In this document: positions 8,701 to 19,616 of the stretch, in pieces | Layout: every line of letters begins with the position of its first letter | Numbering within the stretch: the stretch's first letter is position 1 | Notes under the pieces: generated by a model | Databases searched by the model: none | What the model saw: the letters and a program-made list of their open reading frames with translations, nothing else | What the model was told of the DNA's origin: nothing | Sequence record: NC_005066.1 | Source of the DNA: Escherichia phage RB49 | DNA: 64,000 nt | Direction: 5' to 3' (one strand) | Made by a program: the position numbers and the translations under genes

Positions 8701-8804
8701 TAACATTCTCTATGTTCCGTGAACTTGTAGATAAACGGTTGAAGGATAATATAGGAAATCCACGCGATCCAAAGAATCCGACACAGAGGAAAATTAATGG
8801 CTAA
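5718..8804 (+). CDS. 7: baseplate wedge protein gp7
   Basis: 1028 aa; synteny and size (T4 gp7 about 1032 aa). Confidence 0.85.
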   Translation: MIKAPSVTSLTIEKLSANQAYITWDDVGENFFYFVELAETRTRDGEIIPVDELSWVNLGYTAEQNWFEDKNLFPEYYYKFRVAVAAEGFEQSKWVETEEFQTFKTNAYNFSMMREFNLANEFIKEKFTYDNREYVKFNTDLIQASLMKEDFVFSPEYANMTNISNYIVVDENFHEIQDHIEKVCTDINRTMLAEMNGVLYLFERFQPIVKVSNDKGQSWKAYKAFNDRVGNPVSRTCVYQSKTTTYVLGYDRIFYGRQASDTRWSADDVRFSDDTITFAKVGDENDLGFDVEVFGVFSRLTGDTTKYAEAMACSDDYLWVGAKDVIRRIRLKNTPVDTVQGSPTFGEKIFDPDVIRVTGNDKAVIQKMDVIDGKLLVFVTGEVKQRYQDPTKPENVVPSDDAGVYLIGSDGLSFQRVFGNTPQEREYIQHGFSNMSTNGDEVFISHYNHHFESILPDPETAAKYELGEAVKYSQEPTYLTDKKIHQTTFRASYDDLRIWELGPQAYYNEADYTWMRRNGVRVWITNDNRPLVVYPEVIYTQEVDTSGILDQNRVNREVYDKGTVTCYLNNVKFEGFKQYASGVMFHKNTGEIIGFYQFNYRVRDQVGVYWKPTNVAFVAELQNQVREVPWVPVHYDREQDPDLRPLLNKMTPDSFLLENENFRKFSEYYLQFLSDGSGTYYNKLKNLIKNKYPREQDAYEYLWSEMNKRNIYADKNKRDAVVRFFESRKSDFYSTKGVEASYKFLFKLLYNEDVEIEVESQAGLEYDIVVSSTNIDEDIVGRTIYTPTGRANVTYLEREYEGGRLRWRVTIHNLIGRFEEGQVIKSEKTAFEGMILVGVRGKELLSSSIDYINRSRSQYTMKIKSALPVSRYANDVMRFVHPVGFGFIGVTLLTMFINSGLSMKHTETIIQSLKNYKFDSGLPSVYPDRVADLDVDGNIKKDPLTGKALYLTSPTMGEEFPVPPEYDQENSELFHGLKASERRFAMSPLFDQSAVTFSMFRELVDKRLKDNIGNPRDPKNPTQRKING

Positions 8805-9792
8805 TGAAAATAGTGTGATCTATCGCTCAATCATTACTAGTAAATTCAGAACGGAAAAACTTCTGAATTTCTATAATTCTGTAGGCGATGAGGCAAATCA
8901 AATTACAATTTATGGAACGTTTGGACGTTCGGAGCCGTGGTCAGAAAACGAAAAAGAGGTGGGCTTTGCCCCACCTTATCCGACCGATTCAACGGCTGGT
9001 GTTGTTGATATGTGGACCCATATGATGGGGGCGGTTAAGATTAACAAATCACTTCTTGATGCGGTTATCCCTCGTAAAGATTGGGGTGATACCGGACAGG
9101 ATAACCCGCGCACATTCTTTATCAATGACATTGTTGTTGTCAACTCAGCACCATATAACCGAACTGATGTTGGTAGTGGCTGGATGGTGTATCGCGTAAC
9201 CGATGTTCCTGATCGCGGTTACTGCTCGATTTCAAGCATTGACGCTAAAGTAGAGTGTTTGAAGTTGGGCGGAAAGTGGACACCCACTCATGAATCAATT
9301 GCGCCACCTGTAGGAAAGGGCGATTCTATTGATATGGGTGATGGGTATCGTTGGGAATATCTGTACACAATTCCACCTGATGCGGCGATCAACCGTTGCA
9401 CCAATGAACATATTGTTGTTCCATTCCCTGATGAATTGAGACAAGATCCGGCGCGTTGGGGCTATGACAATGTGATCACCTGGTATAATGACTATAATCT
9501 GCTTTATCGGTTGAAAGTAGTAACTTTGCGTTTTCAGGCTTATATGGACTCTGCGCAATTCCCAACTACCGCGTTAGTGGGTAATACTGGTTTCCGTCAG
9601 TTAAGCATTATCCTTAACCCATTGGAAAAGAAAGCACGCCCTAGCGATCCAGACGTTAAAGCGGTTGAAGATAAGTACCGACCGCAAGACTTAGAGCCAC
9701 ACTCAGGCGAAATGATCTACATGGAAAACCGACAACCTATCGTTCGGTCATTAGATCAAACAGAACTTGTTTCTGTATTGTTTGAGTTCTAA
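8797..9792 (+). CDS. 8: baseplate wedge protein gp8
   Basis: 331 aa; synteny and size. Confidence 0.85.
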   Translation: MANENSVIYRSIITSKFRTEKLLNFYNSVGDEANQITIYGTFGRSEPWSENEKEVGFAPPYPTDSTAGVVDMWTHMMGAVKINKSLLDAVIPRKDWGDTGQDNPRTFFINDIVVVNSAPYNRTDVGSGWMVYRVTDVPDRGYCSISSIDAKVECLKLGGKWTPTHESIAPPVGKGDSIDMGDGYRWEYLYTIPPDAAINRCTNEHIVVPFPDELRQDPARWGYDNVITWYNDYNLLYRLKVVTLRFQAYMDSAQFPTTALVGNTGFRQLSIILNPLEKKARPSDPDVKAVEDKYRPQDLEPHSGEMIYMENRQPIVRSLDQTELVSVLFEF

Positions 9793-11344: not shown

Positions 11345-11352
11345 TATAAATA
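11345..11352 (+). promoter_or_regulatory. T4-type late promoter TATAAATA
   Basis: exact TATAAATA 28 nt upstream of gene 9 ATG. Confidence 0.6.
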
Positions 11353-14690: not shown

Positions 14691-16091
14691 ATGGCAAACA
14701 ATACTATTAACCATGTAAAAGACGATGCTCAATACGTCAAGTTTAACCCTGTAAATGATTGGCCTCAAAGCATTACCAACGTACAAGCGGCTTTAGCCGC
14801 TATTAATGGCTTTGCCGTAAATGGATTACCGGACGCTACGGAAGATACAGCCGGGATCGCTGCAATCGCAACTCAGGAAGAAGTAAACGACGGGACAGTA
14901 GACAATAAGATCGTGACTCCAAAAACACTGGCTGTTAAAATGTCACGTCCAGATGCTACAAAAGAAGTAAAAGGCATTACCCGATTTGCCACGATGGAAG
15001 AATCGCTGCAAGAGAGCAACGAGAACATGGCAATCGGTCCAGACACACTAAACCATTACTTCACCACTAAAAAGGCGTCAGAGAGCGTTCAGGGGACTAT
15101 TAAGATATGTTCTCTTGAGGCGGCAAAGATTGGCAGTGATGACACAATGGCAGTAACACCGAAAAAGATGCACACTGCCATTGCACAGATTGTACCGGGA
15201 TTAATTCCAGATCAAAACACAGCAACAGAAAGCGCACAGGGTTTAGTTCAGTTAGCAACTAATGCGCAGGTTTTACAAGGCCAGATTCGAGAAGGTTTTG
15301 CAATTAGTCCTTATGCATTTGCAAATGCTCGCGCCAATGAGAATCAGGCGGGTACTGTTAAGATCGCCAGCCAGTCACAGATGAATGCTGGTTCAGATGA
15401 TACTGTAGTTGTTTCTGCTAAGAAGTTTGCAAGCACTAAGGCAACAACGTCTCAATACGGTATTGTTAAACTACGAGACACCGTGGGAAGTGAGGCTAAC
15501 GCTGCATTATCAGCAAATGCTAAGGTTCTTCCGAGCACTGGCGGTACGGTAAGCGGAAACGTCTATAAAGGTTCTAACTCAGACGGCAACCAGTTTGTTA
15601 CTAAAAATGAATTAGCGAATCACGCAATGCCAATTGGTGGTATTATCCTTTCTGGATTCAATGCGGATCGCGGCGACTTTCTGATCTGTAATGGTCGTTC
15701 ACTGAATAAAAATCAATATCCGCAATTATTTTCTGCGATTGGTTATACCTTTGGTGGTTCAGGTGACAATTTTAACCTTCCTGATATGCGCGGTTTAGTT
15801 GCTCGTGGTTGCGATCATGGAAGAAACCTTGATCCAGGTCGTCGATTTGGTTCTTATCAAGAAGACGCAATGCAGAGAATTACTGGTAAATTCCCTGTAG
15901 CTGACCGCTGGCGCGGTTGGTATGGTGGCGCATTTACTGCACAGCGCGGTCAATGGAGCACGAACTATAAAAACGGTGGTGGTGATGATTGGGGTACTAC
16001 TGTTAACTTTGACTCAGGAAGATCCGTAAGAACGGCTAACGAGACTCGCGTCAAGAGTCTGGCATTAAACTATATCATAAGGGTGCGCTAA
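14691..16091 (+). CDS. 12: short tail fibre protein gp12
   Basis: 466 aa; N-terminus T4 gp12-like (VKFNPVNDWPQSITNVQAALAAI); C-terminal receptor-binding region. Confidence 0.85.
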   Translation: MANNTINHVKDDAQYVKFNPVNDWPQSITNVQAALAAINGFAVNGLPDATEDTAGIAAIATQEEVNDGTVDNKIVTPKTLAVKMSRPDATKEVKGITRFATMEESLQESNENMAIGPDTLNHYFTTKKASESVQGTIKICSLEAAKIGSDDTMAVTPKKMHTAIAQIVPGLIPDQNTATESAQGLVQLATNAQVLQGQIREGFAISPYAFANARANENQAGTVKIASQSQMNAGSDDTVVVSAKKFASTKATTSQYGIVKLRDTVGSEANAALSANAKVLPSTGGTVSGNVYKGSNSDGNQFVTKNELANHAMPIGGIILSGFNADRGDFLICNGRSLNKNQYPQLFSAIGYTFGGSGDNFNLPDMRGLVARGCDHGRNLDPGRRFGSYQEDAMQRITGKFPVADRWRGWYGGAFTAQRGQWSTNYKNGGGDDWGTTVNFDSGRSVRTANETRVKSLALNYIIRVR

Positions 16092-17860
16092 TGATTGAAC
16101 AATTAAACATCCACGAGATCCCACATGTTGACGGTGTACCAAGCGAAGGACAGCACCGTATTATTTGGATCAAGAATGGCGAATGTTTAAGCGCAGCAAC
16201 GACACAGACTGGCAATGACGGGACGCTTAACCGCGCCCCGGTTGCAATTCAAGAAAACGTTGCACGCGTAAACGAAAACGCAAAATCAACCGTCGCTAAA
16301 GTTAACGAGGTTGTAACGGCGGTTAACGATATTAAAACAACTTTAGGGGTCATTTCTGACGGAAGTATCATTGATGTGGTTAACCAGACTGTCGCAAAAG
16401 TTGAATCCGTCGAAGAGAACTTAGGAGAAACAGCAAGAACTCTACAAACAACGGTAGACGCTGTATCAGAACTTAACATCAAGATTGGTGATCGCCCCGC
16501 TGCCGATCCGAGCACAAGAACAATCTATGATGACATTTCTTTCATCAAACAAGAAATGGGTTCTTATCCTAACTTTAATATCAATGGTTCCCCTGATGCT
16601 GGCAGTTCCGGTTCTGGCATCAAATACCGAGTTATTCAGAATACCGCAGCATTAAATGACCACGGTCGCCGAATCGTTCAGCTTGAAAACGACTGGCAAG
16701 ATTCTGACGTAGGCGAGTTAACAAGACAAGTTAACAAAATGCGCAGTGAGATCGGCGACACGTCTCTTGCAACACAAGAAAATGTGTATGTTCGTCTCCG
16801 CACCAACGCAAGAAATATTGCTAACTTATCAAACGAAGTTCTAGAAGTCAAGAAAGCAATTTTGTTTGATTCAATCCCTGATATCGGGACTAAAGTCACT
16901 ACGCTGGGAACTAATTATGAACTTCTAAACAATGATGTTAATGGTGTAGATTCCGGTATTCGTCCTCGTCTTCTGGCTGTCGAGAATAAGATCGGAACGC
17001 CTCAATCGGCTGGAAGCATTGATTATCGATTAACCAACACAGAGCGAGAATTTTTAGATCTTAAACAGGTTGTTGGTGTAAGCGGTGCTGACGGTTTGCG
17101 CGGTGAAGTTGTTCGACTTTCCAATGAGATTGGCACTGACAGCGATCGACATACTCTAGCCGGACGTATTAAAGTTGTAGAAAACACTCAGGGTCGGTTA
17201 GAAGCAAGCGTACAGGACATGGAACAGATTGTAGGTGATCGCGAATCAGGTTTGACCGCTGGCGTTATTAAACTATCAAGTGATATCTATGGTGATGATG
17301 GTTCAGAAGATCCATTTACTCAGAAAGGCGTGATTAAAATCGTCAAAGAGCTACAAACATCTAACGGAAACAAAGTAGATGATGTACCTGATGACGGTTT
17401 CCATTATCTTCGTAAGCGCGGAGAATGGGTGCAAGTTGCATATGCTGCTGGAGCATTTAAAAATACCGCAGATATTACGGTTGAACTTGACGAACAGGAT
17501 GTTTATAAACCGATTCCACTTAACGACATGGCGGAAGAAGTTAATGCGCGTCAAATGGTGAAAAGTGAATCTGTTGTTACCGTTCAGGACAAAGGTTTAT
17601 TCCGTTGTGTATTCCGTTGTGCTGTACAAGCTCAACATAATGCAACATTCATTGTTGCGATTTTCAAAAATGGACAGATGGTACATGAAGCGAAAAATGG
17701 TCATTACGGCACAGACGAATTGATCAGCTATTCTACCAGTGCTTTCCTAAATATTGAAAATGGCGATCAGATTAACATCCGTATTAAGGGTGTATCTGCC
17801 GAAGCAGTAGCACAGCCAGTACAAATTAAAGAGTTCCTCTTTGGGATTTCTCCGGTATAA
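16091..17860 (+). CDS. wac: fibritin (whisker/neck protein) with extra C-terminal globular domain
   Basis: 589 aa; N-terminus T4 wac-like (VDGVPSEGQHRIIWIKNGE), long coiled-coil segments, foldon-like YLRKRGEWV, then about 125 further residues. Confidence 0.8.
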   Translation: MIEQLNIHEIPHVDGVPSEGQHRIIWIKNGECLSAATTQTGNDGTLNRAPVAIQENVARVNENAKSTVAKVNEVVTAVNDIKTTLGVISDGSIIDVVNQTVAKVESVEENLGETARTLQTTVDAVSELNIKIGDRPAADPSTRTIYDDISFIKQEMGSYPNFNINGSPDAGSSGSGIKYRVIQNTAALNDHGRRIVQLENDWQDSDVGELTRQVNKMRSEIGDTSLATQENVYVRLRTNARNIANLSNEVLEVKKAILFDSIPDIGTKVTTLGTNYELLNNDVNGVDSGIRPRLLAVENKIGTPQSAGSIDYRLTNTEREFLDLKQVVGVSGADGLRGEVVRLSNEIGTDSDRHTLAGRIKVVENTQGRLEASVQDMEQIVGDRESGLTAGVIKLSSDIYGDDGSEDPFTQKGVIKIVKELQTSNGNKVDDVPDDGFHYLRKRGEWVQVAYAAGAFKNTADITVELDEQDVYKPIPLNDMAEEVNARQMVKSESVVTVQDKGLFRCVFRCAVQAQHNATFIVAIFKNGQMVHEAKNGHYGTDELISYSTSAFLNIENGDQINIRIKGVSAEAVAQPVQIKEFLFGISPV

Positions 17861-17866
17861 GAAATT

Positions 17867-17890
17867 AAAGGGGCGTTAAGCCCCTTTTTC
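17867..17890 (+). terminator. intrinsic terminator after wac
   Basis: hairpin AGGGGC-GTTAA-GCCCCT followed by TTTTT. Confidence 0.6.
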
Positions 17891-17906: not shown

Positions 17907-18839
17907 ATGTCAGGATATGTAACCAATAACCCAAGAGAATTAAAAGACGCTATTCTGCGTCGTTTAGGCGCACCAGTAATTAACGTAGAAGTAACAGAAG
18001 ACCAGATTTACGATTGTATTCAGAGAGCACTAGAACTCTATGGGGAATATCATTTCGATGGTGTGAATAAAGGATATAAAGTATTTCGTGTTAGTGCAGA
18101 GCAAGCGCAACACGGGGTATTTGATTTAAGCGATTCTGGTGTATTTGCAGTAACTAAAATAATTCGAACAAACGTAGGTAGCGCGGCTACGATGGATGGT
18201 ACTGCCGTTTATCCGTGGTTCACCGACTTTCTGTTGGGTTTAGCGGGTGTAAATGGCGGTTTAGGATCTGGCTGTAGTAAATTTTATGGTCCAAATGCAA
18301 TGGGTGGTGATCTAGGATATTTCGAACAGCTTATGAGCTATAGAGCCACTATGCAAAATATGCTCAATCCGCTGCCAGATTATTGGTATAACAGCGCAAA
18401 CGGACAACTTAAGATAACAGGAAACTTCCGAGAAGGTGATCTCATTGTTGTTGAATTATATGTTAAAAGCTATGTAGACGTTCCTGATATGATCGGCGCG
18501 GTTGCTGGTTATGCTCATGCGGGAGGATGTTCTACCGCTGGCGGGATTAGCGCCGTTTATGATAATCCAACTGCTGGTTTAAGCGGGATTGTTGCTGGCA
18601 TGGGACCGATCAGTGAGAACAAGCAGGGCGCATATAATAACCGTTGGGTTAAAGACATGGCAACCGCTTTCACTAAGGAGGTGTGGGGGTCCATCATGGC
18701 TAAACATCAAGGTCTGCAATTACCCGGCGGTGTCACTGTTGATGGTATCCGAATCATTGAAGAAGCACGCGCCGACATAGAGAAATTGCGACAAGAACTA
18801 GAATTATTAGATCCTCCGTTCGGCATCCTCATGATTTGA
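17907..18839 (+). CDS. 13: neck protein gp13
   Basis: 310 aa; synteny and size. Confidence 0.85.
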
Positions 18840-18875
18840 TTTATTGGGGGAGTATTCCCCCATTTGGAGTAACAT

Positions 18876-19616
18876 ATGTTTAACAACACTCTTTTTGCTC
18901 GCCTTGAATCGCAAAAGGATTATGAGAATACACGACAAACAGAGATTCTTAATCCTTATGTGAACTTTCACAAATATACAAATACTCAGACGTTAGCCGA
19001 CGTTATGGTCGCCGAAGCTATTCAGATGCGAGGTGTAGAATTATATTACATCCCTCGTGAATTTGTCAAACCAGATATGATCTTTGGTGAGGATGTTCAA
19101 AGCAAATTTACTAAAGCATGGAAATTTGCGGCTTATATTAACTCATTTGATGGGTATGAAGGAGCGGGTAATTTCTTCTCTAGTTTCGGGTATCAAGCTA
19201 ATGATGAACTAACTTTTACGGTTAACCCCAACCTATTCAAACATCAAGTAGATGATCAAGAGCCAAAATCAGGTGACTTAATTTATATTCCAATGAGTAA
19301 TGATTTATTTGAAATTAATTACGTTGAGCCATATCAGCCGTTTTTTCAGGCTGGCAAAAATGCCATGCGTAAAATTATTGCAGAGAAATTCGTGTATAGC
19401 GGTGAGGAATTGCGACCAGAATTACAACGCAATGAGGGAATTAATGTTGATGAGTTTGCGGATCTGGATCTTGCACCGATCACTAATCTGGACGGGTTAA
19501 CAGATATCAACTTAGATCAGTACAAAGAAGATAAGCAATTCAGAAGCGAAGGACAAGATTTTATTGATCCGTTTGATCCTATTAATGGCAAGGGTTCACC
19601 TTTCGCCGATTTTTGA
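18876..19616 (+). CDS. 14: neck protein gp14
   Basis: 246 aa; synteny and size. Confidence 0.85.

Follow-up and report, generated by a model that had tools for sequence, protein, structure and literature searches.

The expanded C terminus of RB49-type fibritin was reportedly described by Letarov et al. in 2005. RB49 fibritin has been reported biochemically as a trimeric whisker on the virion neck, and RB49 represents one of the eight fibritin C-terminal types of Letarov and Krisch (2013), for whom the expanded C-terminal domain is needed for folding and trimerization (PMC3797505). Published work has called the C-terminal part of RB49 fibritin alien, or not related to its T4 counterpart. In T4, the foldon alone drives trimerization, whereas in the RB49 type the foldon motif alone is insufficient (PMC3797505), and 138 more residues follow it. 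Here, we analyzed a stretch of 64,000 nucleotides (nt) of Escherichia phage RB49 (NC_005066.1), hereafter the window, in which positions 16091 to 17860 are the wac gene of an RB49-like Krischvirus. This is the same gene as that of the RB49-type fibritins of RB49, Phi1, and JSE, with the same length of 589 amino acids (aa) and the same place between gp12 and gp13, and there is no substantive difference. The product is a whisker protein of four parts: a conserved domain at the N terminus that binds the neck, an extended coiled-coil shaft, a foldon hairpin, and a C1q/TNF head of 138 residues. The RB49-type extension and its folding role were already published, and the fold was apparently unnamed before; the literature searched yielded no paper tying fibritin to a C1q, TNF, or BclA fold, an absence that is no proof. 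The C1q/TNF fold assignment and the retention of the foldon motif are what is added here. The gene and its four parts are as follows.

16091..17860, + strand: wac (fibritin, neck whisker), 589 aa plus stop, from the list of open reading frames (ORFs) and from DNA and profile matches
16091..16240, + strand: N-terminal neck-attachment domain, residues 1 to 50, strongly conserved with T4 fibritin (role per PMC3797505)
16241..17380, + strand: fibrous shaft, residues 51 to 430, a homolog of the segmented coiled coil in T4 fibritin, aligned to 2bsg/3j2o through about residue 431
17381..17443, + strand: foldon-like motif, residues 431 to 451 (DVPDDGFHYLRKRGEWVQVAY), from the end of Fibritin_C, the T4 foldon alignment, and the predicted hairpin
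17444..17857, + strand: predicted C1q/TNF-like (BclA C-terminal-domain-like) jelly-roll head, residues 452 to 589

The foldon-like motif and the C-terminal head

A sequence-only reading of the window had placed at this locus a fibritin with the foldon-like string YLRKRGEWVQV, and the ORF, PHROG 1056, Pfam Fibritin_C, and the T4 alignment agree with it; all of the strings that it quoted (YLRKRGEWVQV, FRCVFRCAVQAQHNATFIVAIFKNGQ, and LNIENGDQINIRIKG) are present. PHROG 1056, "fibritin neck whisker," matches residues 1 to 581 of the product at an E value of 4e-186, T4 fibritin in the PDB matches residues 7 to 431 at 3e-49 (phmmer), and Fibritin_C (PF07921) matches residues 368 to 451, up to the end of the profile, with 105 bits against a cutoff of 21. 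The protein therefore belongs to the Fibritin/Wac family by sequence (PF07921 above its curated threshold and PHROG 1056), and it does so as well by its neck-binding domain and shaft, both homologous to those of T4 fibritin (2bsg, 3j2o, 1aa0, and 1rfo for the T4 protein and its foldon), and by its position between gp12 and gp13.

The string YLRKRGEWVQV comprises residues 439 to 449. Residues 425 to 449 align with residues 456 to 480 of the 487 in T4 fibritin with 10 identities in 25 positions, including Y, RK, and GEWV, and the T4 protein stops 7 residues past this segment, in keeping with the earlier statement that T4 fibritin ends at the foldon. The C-terminal 169 aa match Fibritin_C by themselves (E value, 2.6e-6), and a PDB profile search with the C-terminal region recovers T4 foldon peptides (1rfo and 4ncv). 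The T4-type foldon motif P-x-D-G-x-x-Y-x-R-K-x-G-E-W-V is found together with its beta-hairpin, which in the model described below has strands at residues 438 to 442 and 445 to 449. A T4-type foldon lies at the extreme C terminus and suffices alone for trimerization, whereas here 138 residues come after the motif. The extension beyond the foldon that the sequence-only reading had proposed is thus real, and its length is 138 residues (452 to 589), not about 125; T4 fibritin, with its 487 aa, ends just past the foldon. The alignments indicate that the T4-like foldon motif is kept and that the head is appended to the foldon and not substituted for it.

Among metagenomic relatives of fibritin, two proteins of 1,006 aa (P0021) and 736 aa (P0022) carry several foldon-like motifs along their C-terminal halves, such as GTYLRKTGEWVK, KYYARRDGMWEKI, GQIYGRKDNKWVV, GNVYGRKDGAWDRI, and GKDYVRKSENWSVL, with more beta-rich sequence at their ends. 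Whiskers seem to reuse the foldon-like hairpin as a form of punctuation.

The structure of residues 421 to 589 was predicted with AlphaFold2 (AF2) from an alignment with ten relatives of 20 to 85% identity. The model, with a mean predicted local distance difference test score (pLDDT) of 89.2 and a predicted template modeling score (pTM) of 0.82, consists of the foldon hairpin followed by an ordered, all-beta domain of about 12 strands. A Foldseek search of the PDB with this model gave 215 matches at an E value of ≤0.001, and all of the top 50 belong to the C1q/TNF superfamily, including C1QL, cerebellin, collagen X NC1, Caprin-2 C1q, BclA, ExsFA/BxpB, EDA, APRIL, and 4-1BBL, with the spike knob of phage phi812 also among them. 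The model has the compact ten-strand jelly-roll fold of the C1q/TNF-like superfamily and matches the solved BclA C-terminal domain (CTD). As a fold, the C1q/TNF-like assignment made earlier from the residue pattern is upheld. Scores for Pfam C1q (PF00386), at 13.1 to 15.4 bits, lie below the cutoff of 23.7, with matches to 4 of the 11 family members at E values of up to 1 (best, 0.025). Pfam BclA_C (PF18573) scores 20.4 bits for the window protein and 27.9 bits for one relative (P0018) against a gathering threshold of 38; it matches 8 of the 11 aligned family members, with a best E value of 3.3e-7 and all of them below the curated cutoff, which leaves the head outside PF18573 by score and related to it at the profile level. 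The product sequence contains no Gly-X-Y repeats of the kind found in the C1q family, its stalk being the fibritin coiled coil and foldon. The head is thus predicted to have a C1q/TNF jelly-roll fold and falls outside the Pfam C1q and BclA_C families.

The identity of the head to the BclA CTD and ExsFA/BxpB of the Bacillus exosporium (PF18573; 1wck, 3twi, 7r1m, and 8d02) is 11 to 14%, and the BclA-type stalk is collagen-like whereas that of fibritin is a coiled coil. Identity to the metazoan gC1q and TNF-ligand domains (Caprin-2 C1q, C1QL, cerebellin, collagen VIII/X NC1, EDA, and APRIL) is 10 to 19%; unlike metazoan C1q, the window protein has no collagen stalk, and the likeness is one of fold that does not imply common ancestry. 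The same fold also occurs at the distal end of trimeric phage fibers, as in the cyanophage A4 tail fiber (9k09), the short tail fiber of A-1(L) (8ke9), PRD1 P5 (1yq5), the TM4 gp23 receptor-binding domain (RBD; 9n6a), the phage 1358 receptor-binding protein (RBP; 4l92), and the central spike knob of phi812 (9eul). Those heads are borne by tails or vertices, with receptor or carbohydrate binding given in the annotation of several, whereas the RB49-type head is on a neck whisker.

In sequence, the head is isolated. A tblastn search with it found only 56 Krischvirus records among 50,697 phage records, a single-sequence search found no match among PDB sequences, and a profile search of the PDB returned only foldon-containing chains. 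An exhaustive phmmer search of 1.84 billion representatives recovered only the family of the head itself and one further protein (P0024), which was rejected as a homolog because its match is a low-complexity repeat artifact; a protein homolog search with the head as the query gave short fragments only. The fibritins of the Jiaodaviruses KP179 and KPV15 and of Aeromonas phage AS4 have the same layout, with 588 aa, a Fibritin_C end near residue 450, a foldon-like motif, and a beta-rich tail of about 138 aa. Their heads are 19 to 26% identical to the Krischvirus head, and head-only hhalign comparisons are weak (E values of 7.8e-5 and 3.1e-4, with probabilities of 61% and 39%). At the sequence level, there is weak support for the heads of KP179, AS4, and P0020 as homologs of the Krischvirus head. 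For KPV15, homology is also supported by predicted structure, a 159-aa fragment (P0025) ranking second among the structural matches in BFVD (TMq, 0.72; E value, 1.7e-10). A common origin of the Krischvirus and Jiaodavirus/AS4 heads is likely, though not proven.

Stand-alone, head-only gene calls occur in P0001 and P0002 (110 aa, ENA metagenome) and in the KPV15 fragment, and the BFVD entry A0A192YAF6 (Morganella phage MP1, 141 aa, "fibritin neck whiskers") likewise covers only a fibritin head or part of one. Such short calls probably stem from wac genes that were truncated or split in annotation, not from head genes that stand alone. A precomputed Pfam match, PF28231, is recorded in four Krischvirus fibritins (P0005, P0006, P0009, and P0010) and may or may not already describe the head.

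Allele mosaicism and selection in wac

Three wac lineages (RB49 type, JSE type, and JK32) share only about 73% DNA identity in the shaft, with synonymous divergence (dS) of 1.1 to 1.9, while the flanking gp13 is 88 to 99% and gp34 to gp36 are 93 to 99% identical in DNA. The divergence starts near the wac start and stops near the wac stop, a pattern by which wac is best described as a deep-allele cassette. Within it, the head contains an exchangeable core.

17516..17821, + strand: exchangeable head core, codons 476 to 577, the part replaced by the JSE type in ECD7 and Makalu_002

Phages ECD7 (L002) and Makalu_002 (L008) are natural mosaics in which an RB49-type shaft (99% identical to that of the window) carries a JSE-type head. 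In ECD7, identity to the window is 99.2% in the shaft and 76.8% over codons 476 to 577 (window positions 17518 to 17819), a block that shares 99.3% identity with JSE (Fisher P, 1e-39). On the 5' side, the crossover falls within codons 440 to 476, where the foldon and first strand are conserved. These mosaics show that modular exchange of the head between same-type alleles is ongoing. At the junction of gp13 with the next neck gene, seg-type homing endonucleases are annotated in ECD7 and Makalu_002 (SegC and SegB), an unnamed "homing endonuclease" is annotated at the gp13/gp14 junction of MIZ4, and KFS-EC has at the corresponding place an ORF of matching size that is annotated as hypothetical. 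The inserts lie at about positions 2950 to 3414 of L002, L004, L005, and L008, and the corresponding junction in the window (18839 to 18876) has none. Co-conversion driven by homing endonucleases could contribute to the mosaicism around wac.

Selection was assessed in the wac genes of ten divergent Krischviruses (L001 to L010), all of which are 1,770 nt long without indels. The ratio of nonsynonymous to synonymous divergence (dN/dS), calculated per segment by the Nei-Gojobori method and approximate because dS is near saturation between allele lineages, is lowest in the foldon (0.036) and second lowest in the N-terminal domain (0.048), rises to 0.094 in the shaft, and is highest in the head (0.162); the control gene, gp13, gives 0.044. 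These values place the head under purifying selection. Diversifying selection on the head was considered and rejected on its dN/dS of 0.16 and a lack of hypervariable loops. The RB49-type and JSE-type heads are separated by 14 fixed differences, which are conservative and fall in strands as often as in loops, and residues 544 to 555 and the last 13 or so residues are almost invariant within the genus. The low dN/dS, the conservative spread of the differences, and the invariant segments together do not form the pattern of a host-range tip. Host range in this group follows gp38, the only protein in which RB49-group host-range mutants differ (PMC9569957).

Function of the head

On balance, the head probably serves as a trimeric C-terminal folding knob that is also the contact tip of the whisker. 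By analogy with the heads of C1q, TNF, collagen VIII/X NC1, and BclA, three heads would pack around the fiber axis into a knob, and a head trimer is likely from its attachment to a trimeric coiled coil. The knob and the foldon motif would then nucleate trimer folding and set the register of the coiled coil from its C-terminal end. A retained foldon combined with a C1q/TNF-like head that recombines as a module would account for the failure of the foldon by itself to fold RB49-type fibritin. The knob would also be the distal tip by which the whisker makes contact, and its likeliest partners are the long tail fibers of the same phage, as in T4, where the literature describes the fibritin C terminus as contacting the tail fiber.

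Several points weigh against this reading. The AF2 model is that of a monomer only, the same fold serves as a receptor-binding head in several phage tail fibers, and no experiments on whisker function in RB49-like phages were found in the literature searched. In addition, no co-variation of head alleles with gp34, gp35, or gp36 was found within the genus. These three proteins are 95 to 100% identical among Phi1, ECD7, Makalu_002, JSE, and JK32; ECD7, with its JSE-type head, has a gp36 protein 100% identical to that of Phi1, and JK32, with its divergent wac, has one that is 99.6% identical. Head alleles that do not track gp34 to gp36 give no signal of co-evolution at an interface between the head and the tail-fiber knee at this scale. 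Such an interface could sit in the conserved part of the head, and the lack of co-variation thus neither proves nor excludes docking.

The last 300 nt or so of gp36 in JSE (L016; about 8740 to 9038), encoding the C-terminal 100 or so residues, contain about 60 mismatches per 300 nt. The same gp36 end is nearly identical in Phi1, ECD7, and JK32, a variation that does not track the wac head type.

An unlikely but more serious alternative than those that follow casts the head as a lectin-like adhesin, or a sensor of the environment, that binds an external ligand, such as a host polysaccharide, mucin, or other glycan, which would provide a reversible first contact or a signal for fiber deployment. 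The fold itself speaks for it, being that of receptor-binding heads in the cyanophage A4 and A-1(L) tail fibers, PRD1 P5, and the TM4 gp23 RBD, of the phage 1358 RBP with bound N-acetylglucosamine, and of a Photorhabdus TNF-like lectin; many of the BFVD matches are annotated as tail fiber, collagen-repeat, or C1q-domain proteins. The variation is of mixed import. The wac gene is far more divergent than its neighbors, its head moves between alleles as a unit, which is common for receptor-binding tips, dN/dS is highest in the head (0.16), and the head does not co-vary with the tail-fiber knee, all as an adhesin might lead one to expect. However, the same ratio is far below 1, hypervariable loops were not found in the head, the 14 fixed differences are conservative and show no preference for loops over strands, and RB49 host-range mutants differ only in gp38 (PMC9569957). 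Letarov and Krisch speculate that novel fibritin C termini serve niche adaptation (PMC3797505), which would suit this alternative.

Slightly less probable is a purely structural head, a C-terminal trimerization nucleus and protease-resistant cap that has no binding partner. The published need for the expanded C-terminal domain in folding, the tolerance of different head alleles with unchanged gp34 to gp36, and purifying selection without hot spots would all fit such a cap. However, T4 does the same job with a foldon of 27 to 30 residues, and with a foldon-like motif kept here, 138 extra residues seem excessive. The conserved residues 544 to 555 and the last 13 or so residues may reflect either core packing or a binding surface, between which the present data cannot separate.

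Still more doubtful is a broader role in which the knob on each of the six whiskers would bind ligands, acting as a lectin or as a sensor of glycans on the host surface or in the environment. The whiskers might then form a second recognition layer, tuned by exchange of the head module, that would help with many O-antigen types or control the release of the tail fibers. Should the head prove to bind a ligand in this way, neck whiskers would, like tail fibers, count as organelles of recognition, and this in a group of phages with therapeutic use. We give almost no credence to the view that there is no separate domain here but a disordered tail, a standard fibritin C terminus, or an annotation artifact, which has no point in its favor: disorder is ruled out by the mean pLDDT of 89.2 and the roughly 12 strands of the AF2 model, and a standard C terminus by the fold of the added domain.

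Whichever role the head plays, the main value of these results is a gain in annotation, a fold name (C1q/TNF-like, BclA-CTD-like) for the long-known "alien" C terminus of the RB49 type. The domain boundaries (residues 431 to 451 and 452 to 589) can be used in experiments and in the engineering of trimerization tags.

The wac locus and its neighbors

At the DNA level, wac shows 99% identity to its counterparts in the RB49-like group, among them those of Krischvirus RB49, Phi1, and GEC-3S. It is matched over at least 80% of its length by 56 phage records, mostly of Escherichia and Shigella phages, and those of the matching records that were examined belong to the genus Krischvirus. The order gp12-wac-gp13 is also annotated in ten Krischvirus genomes and is the arrangement of T4-type phages. 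The following features flank wac in the window.

14691..16091, + strand: gp12 short tail fiber gene, with the Pfam Collar domain, the upstream neighbor of wac
17867..17887, + strand: strong terminator-like hairpin with an 8-bp stem including 5 GC pairs, followed by a T-run, directly 3' of the wac stop
17907..18839, + strand: gp13 neck protein gene, the downstream neighbor of wac, annotated there as gp13 or neck protein in ten related phages

The TAA stop of gp12 shares bases with the wac ATG (TAATG, 16089 to 16093), an overlap that suggests translational coupling of the two genes. In phage G2494, the site 3' of wac that corresponds to the hairpin is annotated as a putative terminator. The closest upstream copy of the T4-type late-promoter consensus, TATAAATA, lies at position 11345.

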